64,000 nucleotides of DNA from a virus. Its lineage: Duplodnaviria > Caudoviricetes. The position numbers and the translations under genes are program-made. The notes beneath the pieces were generated by a model. That model was given only the letters and a program-made list of their open reading frames with translations, was not told the origin of the DNA and searched no databases. The stretch spans positions 17,052 through 81,051 of IMG/VR virus record IMGVR_UViG_3300028532_000002; one strand, written 5' to 3'. Positions 1,970 through 9,401 of the stretch are shown here, piece after piece (position 1 is the stretch's first letter; each line of letters starts with the position of its first letter).

Positions 1970-3703
1970 CTACGCGGCAAGCACGCCCTTCCACGCGACC
2001 CTGACATGCTGCTCAGGCAGAAGCTTGCGCCGACCCACATTCCCCACGGCCAGCATCCGCACCTCCTTCGCAAGCAGCCGCACAGCTGCCCGCCGCTGCG
2101 CTTGCGTCCACCCGGACCACACTCGACGGGCCGCCTGCGCAGACCCCGCAGCCAGCTCCACCAGAAGCGGATCCACCATCACCGGACGCGCCGCCACCCG
2201 CGCCGCCTCCAGCTGCATCAGCAACGGCTTCTCCGCGCGCTCCCCCATCTGCCAGGAAACCCGTCCTGCCTCTACCGCCTCATACAGGCCGGCAAGCTCA
2301 GCCTCCAGCTCCTCGACCTGCTTCTCGGCCGCCGTCAGCGCCTCCCGATTCTCCCGAGGGACCAGAGCAGCCCGCACATCCGGGTGCTCCAGCCGGTCGA
2401 ACAGGAACGACTGGAACGCCTCGTCGAGAACCGCCACCCGCCGCGACCCGTGAACCGGCGCCCCCTTCCCCAGCCCCACACACCGGTACAGACGGACGTT
2501 CTCCCGCTTGATCGGCACCGCGTACACCACGGCCCCACACTCATCGCACAGCGCGATCCCCGACAGCAGATCCATCGAGGATTGCTCCCGCGGGAGCCGT
2601 CCGTTGTTGTTCTCCTTCGGAGTGAGTGCCTCCTGGACCGCCTGCCACCGCGGCGGCGCCAGCACCGCCTGCCAGCCGCCCTGCTCGATCACCCGCCCGT
2701 TGTACCCGCGCTTGCCCTTCAGCGTGGGGGAGGACAGCAGCTGCTTCACCGTCTTGTGCGTCCACCCCTTCGACCGCACCTTCCGGCCGTTCTTCAGCTC
2801 CCGCGTCTCCCCCAGGAGTTGCCCACGTGGCGTCCGCACCCCACGCCGGTTCAAGTCCGCAGCGATCGCCGTGGGGGTGTGCTTGTCCTCAAGCAGCCGA
2901 TCCGCGATCTCCACGACGAGAGCCGCCCGCTGAGGGTGGATCACCTGCCGCACCAGCTCCCCAGTGTCCGGGTCGTAGTCCCGGGTGTACGCGTAGTGGG
3001 CGTACCCGTGCGGGCGCCCTTCCTCCGCGTGCGCATCCACGTCCCGCAGCACCCGCTTCCGAGTGGTGCCGGACTCCTGAATCACCTTGGCCATCTGCGT
3101 GTCGAGGTACCCCATGTCATCGGGGTCGTTGGTGTCCCAGAGTCGTTTGTCGAGTCCGATGTAGACATTGTTGTCCTGGCAGGCCAGCACCAGGTGCGCC
3201 CACACCATCCTGTCGCGGGTGCCTCGGGACAGCTCCCACAGCCACAGGATGTCTGCGCCACCTGCGCGAATCAGTGCCTCGACCTTGGGCCAGTCCTCCC
3301 GAACTCCGGCCGCCCACTCGCTAGCGGAGATGTCGTTGTCGGAGAACTCGGCCACCACATCCCAGTCGTGCTCCTCTGCCCGTCTGCGGCCGATCTTCAG
3401 CTGCTGACCTACCGACCGGCCCTGATGGGAGTCCTGAGACACGCGCGCGTAGATGACGACGCGCAGCCGCCGCGGGGGCATCCTCGCACCGGACATACCG
3501 GCCGCACCCAGGCGAGCCTCGTGTAGGGCAGTTACGCTGGCCCCGTGCCCGCCCGTGGCAGCCACCCTGTGCCCGGCAGGGCCGCGCCCGTTCGCCGTCG
3601 CACATATCGGGGAAGATCTATGGCCCCTCACCAGCCCAAACGTGCGCTCTGCGGTGCATGGCGCGTACTGAGTGTGGCGGAAGCTCGTCAAGACTGAGGG
3701 CAT
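1970..3703 (-). CDS. int: Large serine integrase (resolvase, recombinase and zinc-ribbon domains)
   Basis: VIYARVS catalytic Ser motif, WELSRGTR, recombinase domain, CDECG...YRC zinc ribbon, coiled coil; start may be 3481, 3496 or 3703. Confidence 0.95.
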   Translation of the reverse strand: MPSVLTSFRHTQYAPCTAERTFGLVRGHRSSPICATANGRGPAGHRVAATGGHGASVTALHEARLGAAGMSGARMPPRRLRVVIYARVSQDSHQGRSVGQQLKIGRRRAEEHDWDVVAEFSDNDISASEWAAGVREDWPKVEALIRAGGADILWLWELSRGTRDRMVWAHLVLACQDNNVYIGLDKRLWDTNDPDDMGYLDTQMAKVIQESGTTRKRVLRDVDAHAEEGRPHGYAHYAYTRDYDPDTGELVRQVIHPQRAALVVEIADRLLEDKHTPTAIAADLNRRGVRTPRGQLLGETRELKNGRKVRSKGWTHKTVKQLLSSPTLKGKRGYNGRVIEQGGWQAVLAPPRWQAVQEALTPKENNNGRLPREQSSMDLLSGIALCDECGAVVYAVPIKRENVRLYRCVGLGKGAPVHGSRRVAVLDEAFQSFLFDRLEHPDVRAALVPRENREALTAAEKQVEELEAELAGLYEAVEAGRVSWQMGERAEKPLLMQLEAARVAARPVMVDPLLVELAAGSAQAARRVWSGWTQAQRRAAVRLLAKEVRMLAVGNVGRRKLLPEQHVRVAWKGVLAA

Positions 3704-3733
3704 GGGGCTATAGTAGACCCCGAATCACCACAC

Positions 3734-3765: not shown

Positions 3766-3852
3766 ATAGCACCTTAAATATGTGCGCCCCCGGGCGGTGC
3801 GGACACACCACCTGAGGGCTGACCCGCCCCTGAGCACACCAGGAGACGAGCT

Positions 3853-4047
3853 GTGATGACCGTACCCTCTGGCGTCCCCGTGGACGCCGCCGCCCTCGCG
3901 CTTGACGGGATTGTGACCCTCGCGCGAATGCTGACCCTCACCGAGTGGGCTGTGCTCGTCGCCTGCTTCTCCCTCCTCGCGGCGACGTTCTTCCTCGCGA
4001 CCTTCACCCGTCCGTTCTTCGTGGATCAGGCCCCCTCCTCCCGATAG
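3853..4047 (+). CDS. Small membrane protein, first gene of transfer operon
   Basis: AGGAG RBS; hydrophobic segment WAVLVACFSLLAATFFLATF. Confidence 0.6.
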   Translation: MMTVPSGVPVDAAALALDGIVTLARMLTLTEWAVLVACFSLLAATFFLATFTRPFFVDQAPSSR

Positions 4048-4453: not shown

Positions 4454-4505
4454 ACATCTGCCCGCCCCCTCGCCGGGGGCGGGCCCCACTCTCCTGGAGG
4501 ATCCG

Positions 4506-4751
4506 GTGTCCGACACCGCGACTGCCCGCAGTGTCGGGCCCCACACCCAGCTCGGTCCCGCCTGGACCCGGCTGCCGACCAACCCCGAGCGCTCCCGCGA
4601 GGCCGCCGACCGCGCCCTGGCCGAGTGCCAGGTCGACCCGACCACGGGCCTGTGGCCGTCGGGTCGGGGCCCCTCCCCGTCGTGGCAGCGGCTGATCAAG
4701 GAAGCCGCTGCGGCGGCTACGGCGGCCGACGAGGAGGAGATCGCAGCATGA
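4506..4751 (+). CDS. Hypothetical protein
   Basis: GGAGG RBS; stop overlaps next ATG. Confidence 0.55.
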   Translation: MSDTATARSVGPHTQLGPAWTRLPTNPERSREAADRALAECQVDPTTGLWPSGRGPSPSWQRLIKEAAAAATAADEEEIAA

Positions 4752-5194
4752 TCGAGTCCGCCAACATCGCCGCCAGCGTGGTGTTCCTGATCGTCGCGTT
4801 GGTCCTGTGGTTCGCGAAGACCTGGCCCAAGTTGCAGCTCATCCTGTTCATCCTCGCGGGTGCGGGCATGTCCGCCGGGGTCATCGGCGGCGGGATCCAG
4901 GACGGTGTCGTCGGTCTGATCGACGGCGTGAACCGGGGCATGGTCTGGGCGTTCGGGTCGCCCGTTCCCGGGCTGCTCGCCGTCCTCGCCGTCGTCATCA
5001 TCGTCCTGACCTGGATGGGCAAGGTGGGGTGGATGAAGAAGGCCGCCCGCTATGTGCCGGGCCTCACCGCGCTGGCCGCGCCGATCATCTGGCACCTGAC
5101 GGGCGGGATTTTCGCCCCCCTCGCTCTGATCGTCGGCAGCTTCGGTTCCATCATCGGCGCGATCATCTTCGGAACCATGGGCCTGACCTTCTAA
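4748..5194 (+). CDS. Multi-pass membrane protein (transfer/spread accessory)
   Basis: ATGA overlap; 4-5 hydrophobic helices; upstream of traB. Confidence 0.75.
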   Translation: MIESANIAASVVFLIVALVLWFAKTWPKLQLILFILAGAGMSAGVIGGGIQDGVVGLIDGVNRGMVWAFGSPVPGLLAVLAVVIIVLTWMGKVGWMKKAARYVPGLTALAAPIIWHLTGGIFAPLALIVGSFGSIIGAIIFGTMGLTF

Positions 5195-5499: not shown

Positions 5500-7573
5500 G
5501 CCGACCGACGCTCAGGTCATCCCGCTGCGCCCCCGGCGTGACGCCGAGGACCGGCCGATCCGTCCCGAGTGGACGGGCCGCGCCGGCCGTCGGCGTGCCG
5601 ACCGGCCGACCGTCGGGGCGTCGGGTGGACCCGCCGCCCGACCCGACACCCCGACCGACCACCCGACGCCCGACCCCGACCTGGAGAAGACGCAGGTCAT
5701 CAGGCGTCGGCGTCTACCGACCCTGCCGTCGGGGATCGGCGCGGCCACGCTCGCCGTGCCCGCCCGGTGCGCGTGCTGCGTGGGGCGCGGCATCAAGGCC
5801 GGCGGGGACCGGTTCGGCGAGTGGGCGTCCGAGAAGGGCCACAAGGCCGAGCGGGCGAAGAAGACCCTCTGGTGGGTCGTCGGCGGGGTGGCCGTCCTGT
5901 ACGTGACCGCTCCCTATGGCCTGCTGTGCCTGCTCACCGTCGGCGCCATCGCCGCGGTGGTCGCGGGCCGGAGGGTCCCTCCGGCGGTGTCGGGTGGGGC
6001 CGACGCTCCGGGCAGGACGTTCACCGGCCCGACCGCTCCCCGAGCCGACACGTCGGGCAACGAACCGACCATCCCGGCCGACCACCCGACGCCTCCCCCG
6101 CTGCCCGACTACACGGTGGCCGACCACCCGACCGACAGCACCGACGGCGCGAGCCGCTACTCCGGGCCCGCCATGACGGCCCGCATCACCCCGGCGACCC
6201 TGACCGCCGAAGCGCTCCCCACCCTGCTCGCCCAGGCCGGGATCATCCGACCGGCCGACCGACGGCTGGTCGTCGTCGAGGGAGAACCGACCCGACACCC
6301 GACCGGGGCGGTGTCGGCGTCCATGCTGCTGCCGCCCGGCGCCGACGCGGAGGAGGTCATCGCGCAGGCGCGGGTGGTCGCGTCCGCGCTGGGTGTCGGC
6401 AAGATGCTCGTCGGGCTGTCGGCCGACCCCGAGCACGCGGGTCGGCTGGAGCTGTATGTGGCCGACGCCGACCCGTTCACGGAGTCGGTTCCGTCGCCGT
6501 TGGTCGGTCGGGAGGAGGAGCTGTCGGTGTGGGAACGGCTGCCGGTCGGGTGGGACGTGCGTATGGACTCGGTTGCGCTGCGTCTGGTTGACGCGTCCAT
6601 GCTCATCGCCGGAGAGCCCCGCGCCGGGAAGAGCGTGGCGCTGTCGGAGATCATCGCCGCGTTCGCCTTGGACCCCTCTGCGGACCTGTTCCTGTTCGAT
6701 GGCAAGGGCGCTGGCGACCAGGCGGTGTGGAGGCCCGTCGCGCGGGTGTTCTGCAAGCGCAACGCCGAGATGCTGCGGGTCCACCTGGAGTGGGCGGTGG
6801 AGGAGATGGAGCGGCGGTTCGACGCCCTGGAGGAGGACGGGCGCGACACCAAGCTCACGCCGGAGATCGCCGAGGACCTGGGATTCAACGTGAGCTTGCT
6901 GGCCGTGGACGAGACCCGCTACTACATGTCGGATCCCACGCACGGCAAGGCGATCGCCCGCCTGGCGGTGGACCTCGCGGCTCGCGGCCCGGCGGCCGGG
7001 ATGATCTCGGCGTGGGCCACCCAGTACATGGACAAGACCGCCATCCCCCCACAGCTCAAGGGTGTGTGCTCGCTGCGGTGGGCGTTCCGCACCCCGGACG
7101 CGGTCGCGAGCAACCTCGTGTTGGGTCCAGGGGCGGTCGGCCGTGGCTACAACTCCTCCAGGATTCCCCGGGTGACGCACCGCGGCGTCAGCATTCTGGA
7201 CGCGGACGGCGACGAGCCTCAGATGATGCGCACCCACTACCTGACCCCGGCCGAGCTGCGCGAGATCGCGGACACCGCGACCGCGCTGCGCGGCGGCCCG
7301 GTGGAGGCCAGCGAGCCCGCGGCGGCGGATGCCGACGGGGCGCAGGTGCTGGAGCGGGCGCTGGCGGCGCTCGCCGACAACGAGGACCGAGTCGAGCGCG
7401 ACGACCTCGCCGAGCGGCTCGACGTGGACCCGGACGACCTCAGGGCCCGGCTCAGAACGGCCGGCGCGGGCGCCCCGCAGAGCATGCGGATCAACGGCGT
7501 TCCGAACGCGCGCGGCTGGTATCGGCGGGTCCTGGAGGAGGCGTTGGACGCTGTCACGGACGCGCCGCCGTGA
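5489..7573 (+). CDS. traB: TraB-type FtsK/SpoIIIE conjugal DNA translocase
   Basis: N-terminal TM pair, Walker A GEPRAGKS, FLFDGKG, Walker B LLAVDE, WATQY, C-terminal winged-helix-like ERDDLAERLDVDPDDLRARL. Confidence 0.9.
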   Translation: MTAEPTDAQVIPLRPRRDAEDRPIRPEWTGRAGRRRADRPTVGASGGPAARPDTPTDHPTPDPDLEKTQVIRRRRLPTLPSGIGAATLAVPARCACCVGRGIKAGGDRFGEWASEKGHKAERAKKTLWWVVGGVAVLYVTAPYGLLCLLTVGAIAAVVAGRRVPPAVSGGADAPGRTFTGPTAPRADTSGNEPTIPADHPTPPPLPDYTVADHPTDSTDGASRYSGPAMTARITPATLTAEALPTLLAQAGIIRPADRRLVVVEGEPTRHPTGAVSASMLLPPGADAEEVIAQARVVASALGVGKMLVGLSADPEHAGRLELYVADADPFTESVPSPLVGREEELSVWERLPVGWDVRMDSVALRLVDASMLIAGEPRAGKSVALSEIIAAFALDPSADLFLFDGKGAGDQAVWRPVARVFCKRNAEMLRVHLEWAVEEMERRFDALEEDGRDTKLTPEIAEDLGFNVSLLAVDETRYYMSDPTHGKAIARLAVDLAARGPAAGMISAWATQYMDKTAIPPQLKGVCSLRWAFRTPDAVASNLVLGPGAVGRGYNSSRIPRVTHRGVSILDADGDEPQMMRTHYLTPAELREIADTATALRGGPVEASEPAAADADGAQVLERALAALADNEDRVERDDLAERLDVDPDDLRARLRTAGAGAPQSMRINGVPNARGWYRRVLEEALDAVTDAPP

Positions 7574-7660
7574 CGTCACGCCCCGCGCGCGTGACAGGCG
7601 CGTGACACCAGGGCGTGACACCGATTCACCTGCATAAACACCCGTGTGGCGGGCGTGACA
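7552..7660 (+). repeat. clt-like cluster of 8-bp direct repeats (GCGTGACA)
   Basis: Exact copies at 7589, 7600, 7613 and 7653; variants CCGTGACG at 7569 and inverted TGTCACGG at 7552; immediately 3' of traB. Confidence 0.7.
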
Positions 7661-7802
7661 CTCACCCCGACCACACCCCAGAAAACGGCCCCCAGGAGGG
7701 GGTCCGGCGCCACCGCCACACCGCCACACCACACAGAAGCGGCCTGCCCCCTACCGGCCAAGGACCAGGGGCGGGCCTAGACCCCGAGAAGGAGCCTGAA
7801 CC

Positions 7803-9401
7803 ATGTTCGCAGACGCCATCACCGACCCGGCCGTCCAGGAGGCCGCGTCCGCCCCGTGGTGGGTGTGGGCGCTGACCGCCGTGGCCGTCCTGGGTGTGAC
7901 GGTGTGGGTGGTGCTCCGCCTGCACCAGACCGTCCGGGACGGGTGGAGCATCCGGGACGTTCTGCCCCGGGTGGTCGCCTCGGTGCGGTCCGCACGCCCC
8001 CGGCCGGCCGCCGCTGTGACGGTGCCCCGGCCGCGGCCCGCCGCCGCGCCCTCCGTGCCGCCGGTGCCGCCCGCGCCGGACCCCGTCGCCCCGGTTGAAC
8101 CCCCCCAGGCGGCCCCGGTCGAGGCTGCGGGACCGCCCACGGCGTCCCGCCTCAAGGGCCTCATCGTCGCCGCCAGCATCCCGTCCACGTTCTCTCTGGT
8201 GTGGACCGTGTGGACGTTCATCGACATGCTGACCGCGCCGCTGCCCGCCGCGCTGGCGGCCGGTCTGGTCCTGGACGTGGCGCTCGTCGCCGCGGTCGCG
8301 ATCGGATTCCTCGTCCCGGACAGGGCGACCCCCGCGAAGATCGCCGGGTGGATCATTGCGGCCCTGGCGGCGGTGATCGTGGGCTGGCACAGCATGACGC
8401 TGATGACGGTGCTCGTGCTGCTCGGCGCGATTCCGCTGGCGTCCAAGGCGCTGTGGCACCTGGCGCTCGACGCCTACCTGACGCAGCGGCGCCAGCTGGC
8501 GGCCTGGCATGCCCGACAGGAGGACGAGGCGCGGGCGGCGCGGGAGCGGGAGGCGGAGGAGGCCCGGCAGCGGAAGGAGGCCGAGCTCGCCGCGGAGGAG
8601 GAGCGCAAGCGCCGCGAGGAGGAGCTGTCCTCCGACCTGGACCACAAGCAGCAGGTGCTGATCGCCAAGAAGCAGAAGGAGGCCGAGTTCGCCCGGCGGA
8701 TGGCCGCTGCGGAGCTGGAGCTGGAGATGGCCAAGTCCGAGGCCGAGCACAAGGCGGCCCTGGCCAAGATCCGGCGTCTGGGTGAGCAGCAGCGGGCGAT
8801 GGACAAGGAGTCCGCGGAGGTCGAGAAGGGACGCCAGCAGCTGATCCGGGAGATCAAGGCGGGCGAGGGTATCGACTTCGCTGTCGAGGCCGCGCGCCCG
8901 GCGCGGCGTGCACTTGGCCGACCCGACGACCCGACCGACGGTCCCGACGGGCCCGGCGGCGGGAAGCCGGTGGAGGACGTGTGGTTCCCGGAGCCGACCG
9001 ACGTGCAGTGGGAGCGGCACGGGCAGCCGACGGCCCGGCCGACTGCCGACCCGATCCCGGTGGGACAGTCGGTCGACGCCCGACCGACCGCCGACCTGCC
9101 GCCGTTCCTGTGGCCCGACGCCGCCCCGACGCCCGACCCGACCCCGGCGCCGGGTCCGTCGGTGGACGTGCCGCGCGACGACGACGCTCTCCTGGAACGC
9201 GTGCACGCCTTGGTGATGTCCGGGGAGTTGCCGCTGGTGCTGACCCGTGAGCAGCGGGCCGCCGGGCAGGTCGTCCCGGACCGACCGGCCGCCGAATCGC
9301 TGCGCAACGCGGTCGGGTGCGGGCAGGTCCGATCGCGGAGGCTGCGTGACGCCTACCCCGACTACGCCACCGGCCGAGAGAACACGTGGGGTGCGGCGTA
9401 G
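7803..9401 (+). CDS. SpdB-like spread protein (membrane helices, coiled coil, Pro/Thr-rich tail)
   Basis: AAGGAG RBS; several TM helices, long E/K/R coiled coil, C-terminal HTH-like SLRNAVGCGQVRSRRLRD. Confidence 0.7.
   Translation: MFADAITDPAVQEAASAPWWVWALTAVAVLGVTVWVVLRLHQTVRDGWSIRDVLPRVVASVRSARPRPAAAVTVPRPRPAAAPSVPPVPPAPDPVAPVEPPQAAPVEAAGPPTASRLKGLIVAASIPSTFSLVWTVWTFIDMLTAPLPAALAAGLVLDVALVAAVAIGFLVPDRATPAKIAGWIIAALAAVIVGWHSMTLMTVLVLLGAIPLASKALWHLALDAYLTQRRQLAAWHARQEDEARAAREREAEEARQRKEAELAAEEERKRREEELSSDLDHKQQVLIAKKQKEAEFARRMAAAELELEMAKSEAEHKAALAKIRRLGEQQRAMDKESAEVEKGRQQLIREIKAGEGIDFAVEAARPARRALGRPDDPTDGPDGPGGGKPVEDVWFPEPTDVQWERHGQPTARPTADPIPVGQSVDARPTADLPPFLWPDAAPTPDPTPAPGPSVDVPRDDDALLERVHALVMSGELPLVLTREQRAAGQVVPDRPAAESLRNAVGCGQVRSRRLRDAYPDYATGRENTWGAA

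Follow-up and report, generated by a model that had tools for sequence, protein, structure and literature searches.

We asked whether a short array of the octamer GCGTGACA, which follows a traB-like gene in a virus genome, could be the cis-acting transfer locus (clt) at which a TraB-type DNA translocase docks. The 64,000-nucleotide stretch analysed here (the window) corresponds to bases 17052-81051 of the 81,051-bp genome of IMG/VR record IMGVR_UViG_3300028532_000002, and encodes a 694-aa FtsK/SpoIIIE-type protein immediately ahead of the repeats. Known clt regions contain direct 8-bp repeats that are recognised by the cognate TraB (PMC4447253). Judged from the layout of the gene, its product, the repeats and the corresponding loci of relatives, the GCGTGACA array is probably a clt and thus a candidate TraB docking site. 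This reading had been put forward in a preliminary description of the same DNA, and those of its parts that can be tested on sequence, namely the TraB architecture, the position of the array and the presence of arrays in relatives, came out as expected.

The array consists of four exact GCGTGACA copies. They share the + strand and their starts are 11, 13 and 40 bp apart, in agreement with the number, orientation and spacing originally described (coordinates in Table 1). It begins 16 bp past the traB stop codon and ends 143 bp ahead of the next start codon. The spacers of 3, 5 and 32 bp are mutually unrelated, and conservation is confined to a unit of 8-10 bp, (G)GCGTGACA(C)(C). By simple arithmetic at 10.5 bp per turn, copies 1, 2 and 4 point to roughly one side of the helix and copy 3 is about one third of a turn off. 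A search of the locus allowing one mismatch found two further copies, CCGTGACA and GCGTGACG, which flank the traB stop (7571-7573). Two variants had also been reported in the region straddling the stop; they do exist, but both are inverted, on the - strand, and not co-oriented with the exact copies.

Across the whole genome, GCGTGACA occurs exactly six times, always on the + strand and never on the - strand, and four of these six copies are found within 72 bp. The only two exact copies elsewhere in the window are at 423 and 39930. Our own rough estimate of the probability that four of six uniformly placed copies would fall inside 72 bp is ~4e-8. Octamers with at least four non-overlapping same-strand copies in 80 bp were found at just two places genome-wide, the array itself and an unrelated tandem repeat beyond the window, and clusters of this kind appeared in none of 40 genomes simulated with a first-order Markov model. 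A chance origin of the GCGTGACA cluster is excluded. Copies with one mismatch number 47 versus 91 in dinucleotide shuffles, an apparent depletion that is compositional: letter permutations of GCGTGACA give similar counts, and measured against these, near-matches elsewhere in the genome show neither enrichment nor unusual depletion. The sole other site with four clustered 8-mer copies is a perfect tandem 8-bp repeat, TTCCCCTG, of at least four units at genome bases ~8447-8488, which is ~8.6 kb before the window begins. The 10-mer shared by array copies 3 and 4, GGCGTGACAC, also occurs singly at 422-431 within a minus-strand 82-aa open reading frame (ORF; 271-519), most likely as a chance coding match.

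The gene that ends beside the array had been proposed to be of TraB type, and its product indeed has the full architecture: it is a complete TraB-type translocase, with a membrane hairpin, an FtsK-like motor and a C-terminal winged helix. The 694-aa ORF matches Pfam FtsK_SpoIIIE (5e-7) and the FtsK/SpoIIIE-like family phrog_1358 (3e-31), and a profile of 42 homologues recovered FtsK from the PDB (1.4e-20). The Walker A (GEPRAGKS) and Walker B (VDET) motifs are kept across homologues. Residues 1-94 are disordered in an AlphaFold2 (AF2) model; the membrane hairpin is made of helices within residues 83-160, with a hydrophobic stretch at ~128-160, and is joined by a P/T-rich disordered linker (160-229) to the motor (240-600), which was modelled with a predicted local distance difference test (pLDDT) score >90 and has the FtsK motor 2iut as its best Foldseek match (E 1.4e-16). 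When the C-terminal domain was modelled alone in a 100-aa construct, pLDDT was >90 over construct residues 21-97 and the predicted topology was H1-S1-H2-H3-hairpin wing-H4 (AF2). The top structural matches of this domain are winged-helix DNA-binding domains throughout (Rex, MarR, IclR and others), the best being Rex (Z 7.3, root-mean-square deviation 3.0, 69 aligned), and the putative recognition helix, H3, covers residues ~648-657 (PDDLRARLRT). On these models, the winged helix at residues 611-691 is the presumed reader of the octamer.

In sequence, the window TraB is 35% identical to pSVH1 TraB over residues 256-601 (tblastn, E 2e-38), and ~70 other actinomycete plasmid proteins are related to it to a similar degree (tblastn); identity to plasmid-borne TraB proteins in PLSDB does not exceed ~37%. 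The nearest TraB, P0002, is a 677-aa protein encoded on a Logan contig of 82,694 bp, with an identity of 63% in BLASTP and 68% in a MAFFT alignment; its H3 (PDDLRDRLVT) departs from that of the window TraB at two positions. It is followed by FtsK/SpoIIIE-domain proteins of Nonomuraea, Streptosporangium and Actinacidiphila, with ~45-53% identity over the motor and C-terminus. Used as a query, the C-terminal 90 aa of the window TraB recovered only the protein from which they were taken.

We then compared the window with 19 IMG/VR loci that encode TraB relatives, using pSVH1 as a control. The pSVH1 octamer, GACCCGGA, was re-located in direct orientation at +16, +38, +70 and +91 past the traB stop, with one inverted copy at +107, and most of the 19 loci likewise carry locus-specific 8-mer arrays straight after the stop, with a spacing of 10-30 bp. 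In pSVH1 and most of these loci, the array sets in no more than ~40 bp from the stop. The premise that an element bears repeats of its own octamer beside traB was recovered for most loci. In the window, the repeat region (7552-7660) overlaps and adjoins the 3' end of traB, as in pSVH1 and pWTY27, and its four exact direct copies with two inverted one-mismatch copies have their counterparts in relatives that carry other words (Table 1). Sorting the loci by octamer gives the same sets as sorting them by the H3 and wing sequences of the TraB C-terminal domain, such that like domains go with like words; both the H3/C-terminal domain and the octamer of the window are unique among the compared loci. 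These sequence groupings suggest that word and C-terminal domain of TraB vary together, as the clt model predicts.

Table 1. Features of the traB region in the window (window coordinates), and words of the post-traB arrays at related loci.
Feature	Position or locus	Strand	Remark
Large serine recombinase	1970-3724	-	adjoins transfer module
tRNA-Gln call (ARAGORN), 90 nt	4884-4973		probably false
traB-like gene, 694 aa	5489-7573	+	FtsK/SpoIIIE-type translocase
Codons of predicted C-terminal winged helix	7319-7561	+	residues 611-691, AF2 model
Inverted one-mismatch copy CCGTGACA	7552-7559	-	inside final traB codons (..AVT..)
Perfect 10-bp palindrome GTGACGTCAC	7570-7579		contains TGA stop 7571-7573; unique in genome
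Inverted one-mismatch copy GCGTGACG	7574-7581	-	overlaps/forms half of palindrome GTGACGTCAC
Octamer copy 1	7589-7596	+	exact
Octamer copy 2, GCGTGACACC	7600-7607	+	exact
Octamer copy 3, GGCGTGACACC	7613-7620	+	exact
CACCTGC, window form of (G/C)ACCTG(C/G)	7627-7633	+	+54 from stop, between copies 3 and 4
Second repeat CCGCCACAC, inverted copy	7644-7652		abuts octamer copy 4
Octamer copy 4, GGCGTGACAC	7653-7660	+	exact
Terminator-like hairpin, CCCCCTCCTGGGGG then CCGTTTTCTG	7689-7702	-	between two + strand genes
Second repeat CCGCCACAC, direct copies	7713-7721, 7721-7729		abutting
532-aa membrane protein, possibly Spd-like	7803-9401	+	translation
CCTAGCAG-type words	L133, L134, L138		post-traB array
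GGTCTACC	L135, L136, L137, L147		post-traB array
TCTCGGGT or TCTAGG	L139, L140		post-traB array
GACCCGGA	L142		post-traB array
CCGCACAG, pJV1 type	L150, L151		post-traB array

The clt reading is well supported by architecture, because the array is non-random, the TraB protein, a relative of pSVH1 TraB, is complete in its three domains, and the layout of gene followed by array recurs in relatives. In the mechanism that we propose, the four direct GCGTGACA copies, perhaps joined by the inverted pair of near-copies around the stop, would be the TraB recognition sequences. The winged-helix C-termini of a membrane TraB hexamer would bind these octamers, and the ring of FtsK-like motors would thereby be loaded on the double-stranded DNA of the element. 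The motor would then pump this DNA across the membrane, either to the adjoining hyphal compartment or to a mating partner. The downstream protein, if Spd-like, may assist spread across septa. We infer binding by TraB, its loading and any transfer of the phage genome; what the sequences show is the make-up of the locus and the recurrence of its layout in relatives.

Several observations weigh against this reading. FtsK gamma is absent among the structural matches listed for the TraB C-terminal domain, and Z scores of 5-7 indicate a common fold. Shared ancestry is a confounder of the link between octamer and C-terminal domain. No close relative of the window TraB was found in genome contigs, IMG/VR or metagenomes, the last searched with a P0001+P0002 profile. 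A GntR/TraR-type regulator was not found in the whole genome, and control of traB therefore differs from the plasmid paradigm. Lastly, the 532-aa protein encoded downstream may, according to its structural model, end in a winged-helix-like DNA-binding tail, which we treat as a lead only.

This tail is the main rival reader of the array. In such a scheme, the array would be a docking site bound by the 532-aa protein, which would tether the DNA to the spreading apparatus. The array does lie between the two genes, 16 bp past the traB stop and 143 bp before position 7803, and the ESM Atlas model of residues ~457-532 resembles GntR, FtsK-gamma and Rex winged helices as well as a DUF2637 protein (TM-score ~0.4); moreover, pSVH1 SpdB2 binds double-stranded DNA (dsDNA; PMC4447253). 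However, the resemblance is weak and the protein has no Pfam match even at E 10. Related TraB loci show the same layout of stop and array with a homologue of the 532-aa protein encoded at none of them, leaving TraB as the constant partner of the arrays, and the equivalent repeats of pSVH1 and pWTY27 are read by TraB and TraA, respectively, as established by experiment (PMC4447253, PMC3583192). We consider this alternative unlikely. The protein itself, as read from its sequence, has an N-terminal transmembrane segment, a hydrophobic transmembrane-like cluster at ~115-220 and a long, charged coiled-coil-like stretch. It is weakly similar to pSVH1 SpdB2 in the transmembrane region (E 0.036), matches no PHROG family, and a search of IMG/VR for homologues was empty. 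We regard it as a putative Spd-like partner of TraB.

Somewhat less likely again is that the repeats are operators for a regulator of the downstream spd-like operon or of traB read-through, with a dimeric repressor sitting on GTGACA/TGTCAC half-sites. The locus does have inverted half-sites (the TGTCAC that starts at 7552, and the palindrome GTGACGTCAC), and the array is situated ahead of the next gene; in pSVH1, moreover, repeats upstream of spdB3 are bound by TraR (PMC4447253). All four exact copies are nonetheless direct rather than paired in palindromes, and no sigma-70-like promoter was detected in 7300-8000. The genome also lacks a detectable GntR-type regulator, and the layout fits the clt regions of relatives.

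We give little credence to the idea that the repeats are replication iterons, a partition centromere or a phage packaging site unrelated to TraB. Scans for GCGTGACA doublets in IMG/VR and triplets in metagenomes each returned well over 100 loci, none of which encodes a TraB relative. Many unrelated contigs that lack TraB thus have GCGTGACA-containing arrays, built of tandem or iteron-like units of 11-22 bp; in the high-GC loci inspected, these longer units merely contain the word. Because the loci have no TraB relative and the word sits inside longer units, the scans lend no support to the clt reading. An AT-richer short patch (cataaaca) between octamer copies 3 and 4 would also suit an iteron. 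On the other hand, the window keeps just an 8-10-bp core with unequal spacers, unlike the whole-length tandem units elsewhere. Neither ParA nor ParB was found in the whole genome, the two ORFs scanned upstream of traB (3823-4044 and 4454-5191) match no Pfam family, and the terminase genes are 45 kb distant from the array.

The least credible proposal, that the traB mRNA ends in a hairpin acting as a terminator or attenuator, with the repeats as by-products of a stem, can draw on inverted repeats at 7551-7564 and 7584-7597 that are 86% complementary and could form a hairpin around the stop codon, but is unsupported, as the folding energy is no better than that of shuffled sequences (z -1.4 for 7545-7670, z -0.1 for 7545-7605), there is no + strand terminator-like site and no Rfam match, and copies 2-4 are dispensable for the stem.

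Apart from the locus-specific words, the post-traB regions share a second motif. Over 21 TraB loci, (G/C)ACCTG(C/G), often as CTGACCTGC, was present no more than 220 bp past the stop in 16, compared with 0.23 expected per locus. Its offset is +46 to +60 in the closest clade, a range that includes the window copy. Taken alone, the CACCTGC of the window is not significant (~0.07 expected, from 26 copies on that genome strand), and its weight rests on position and not on occurrence. As (T)GACCTGC, the motif is common to post-traB regions of at least three TraB clades with differing octamers. It is not an element-specific recognition word, and could be a host-factor site, a promoter element or a TraB-independent common core of the clt; no discussion of it was found in the clt literature examined. 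Copies of this motif, of a (C/T)TGACCTGC-like form, were noted in the window (7627-7633), in the L013:4522 region, in L134, L136, L137, L139 and L142, and further in L145/146, L147, L149 and L175:8063-8071 (-).

Otherwise, the DNA between traB and the next gene showed only noise-level similarity to plasmids, and nothing significant beyond the motifs was found in comparison with the post-traB regions of relatives. The best match to the latter, the 11-mer GAAAACGGCCC, has a near-equal offset in L147 and is statistically not significant. Another local repeat, CCGCCACAC, occurs seven times in the genome, three of them in this region, and a terminator-like hairpin on the minus strand was also noted (Table 1).

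In its assembled form, the genome that carries the array is linear, and CheckV puts its completeness at 92%. It encodes a tape-measure protein, a portal, a large terminase, a major head protein and tail proteins. Its portal is nearest to those of Thermobifida phage P1312 (45%) and a 90-kb Streptomonospora plasmid (44%). Among INPHARED phages, none had a comparable TraB; the TraB protein cluster was seen on contigs of up to 81,056 and 81,060 bp (Logan, ENA, JGI). The gene content points to an integrase-bearing, siphovirus-like tailed temperate phage, and not to a plasmid or a classical actinomycete integrative and conjugative element (AICE). We place the TraB module in a tailed temperate phage genome because virion genes and a large serine recombinase are present and ParA, ParB and a GntR-type regulator were not found. 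Upstream of traB, ARAGORN called a tRNA-Gln inside the ORF at 4454-5194, which is biased in GC at third codon positions; the call is probably false, since Rfam finds no tRNA there at the gathering threshold.

A broader reading, which we hold tentatively and at slightly less than even confidence, is that the genome belongs to a lineage of integrating tailed temperate phages in which the TraB-clt-Spd module still works and can pass the phage genome as naked dsDNA between hyphal compartments or mating partners without virions. This lineage would have two known members, of 81-83 kb, with a serine integrase and no plasmid partition genes. If so, it would be a conjugative phage distinct from the plasmid-phages of the pZL12 type, with the GCGTGACA array as its transfer origin. 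If TraB loads at the array, the 110-bp fragment would be a handle for moving a complete tailed-phage genome by conjugation-type pumping, and the boundary between phages and conjugative elements would be blurred in mycelial actinomycetes. An octamer array after traB is in itself what a specialist would expect; it is the word that is new and the carrier that is unusual. The locus also adds one pair of TraB C-terminal domain and octamer to the small set from which a winged-helix recognition code might be read.

Among known systems, the chromosomal translocase FtsK offers the most general parallel. FtsK orienting polar sequences (KOPS) are 8-bp words read by the C-terminal winged helix, FtsK gamma, of a hexameric dsDNA pump, and are dispersed over the chromosome with a strand skew. 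The window TraB matches the FtsK motor fold and has an 8-bp word with a predicted C-terminal winged-helix reader. In contrast to KOPS, however, its word is not dispersed but concentrated at a single place, and the 81 kb contain just two further copies.

Plasmid pSVH1 is closer. PMC3583192 and PMC4447253 cite Vogelmann et al. (2011) for its GACCCGGA repeats, whose reader is helix alpha-3 in the winged-helix domain of TraB. Besides the 35% identity of the TraB motors, both loci have four direct 8-bp copies starting at +16, inverted copies, and a (G/C)ACCTGC motif within the post-traB intergenic region. They differ in the octamer, in the inverted copies, which in pSVH1 are represented by an exact one after the direct copies and in the window lie before them and overlap the stop, and in the TraR (GntR) regulator, which pSVH1 has and for which no counterpart was found in the window genome.

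The clt of pWTY27 (GU226194.2) comprises 16 bp within traA and 159 bp beyond it, with four DC1 repeats, TGACACC (PMC3583192), and is bound by TraA in electrophoretic mobility shift and DNase footprinting assays (Wang et al. 2012, PMC3583192). As in the window, this clt straddles the stop of the tra gene and combines four direct copies of a short word with inverted repeats, and the core TGACAC(C) is common to the DC1 repeats and the window's GCGTGACAC(C). The octamer had initially been described as one without a recognised precedent, a statement that no longer holds, because TGACAC(C) is shared with the TraA-footprinted repeats of pWTY27. A scan of IMG/VR for TGACACC doublets found no relative of the window TraB and turned up a further locus, L175 (region 7924-8079, -). 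Here the gene for a 668-aa TraB from a second clade precedes CTGACCTGC and six copies of CTGACACC, the word that TraA footprints in pWTY27. This protein has no Pfam match and falls in the large NCBI family 'plasmid transfer protein TraB'; its C-terminal 100 aa have no detectable similarity to the C-terminal domain of the window TraB. The shared core may thus be coincidence or convergence, since the C-terminus that goes with the CTGACACC repeats is unlike that of the window. The replicons also differ, pWTY27 being a 14.3-kb theta plasmid and the window part of an 81-kb tailed-phage genome.

With regard to the carrier, the closest precedents are the plasmid-phages pZL12 and pFP4, which are described as both conjugating and forming particles (Zhong et al. 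2010; Chen et al. 2012; as cited in PMC3583192, PMC4170104 and PMC4487206). Like the window genome, they unite phage particle genes and Streptomyces-type tra functions in one element. Elements of the pZL12 type have ParA/ParB and replicate as plasmids (PMC4487206), whereas the window genome has no detectable ParA/ParB and carries a large serine recombinase, an enzyme that sets it apart equally from the classical AICEs with their tyrosine integrases.

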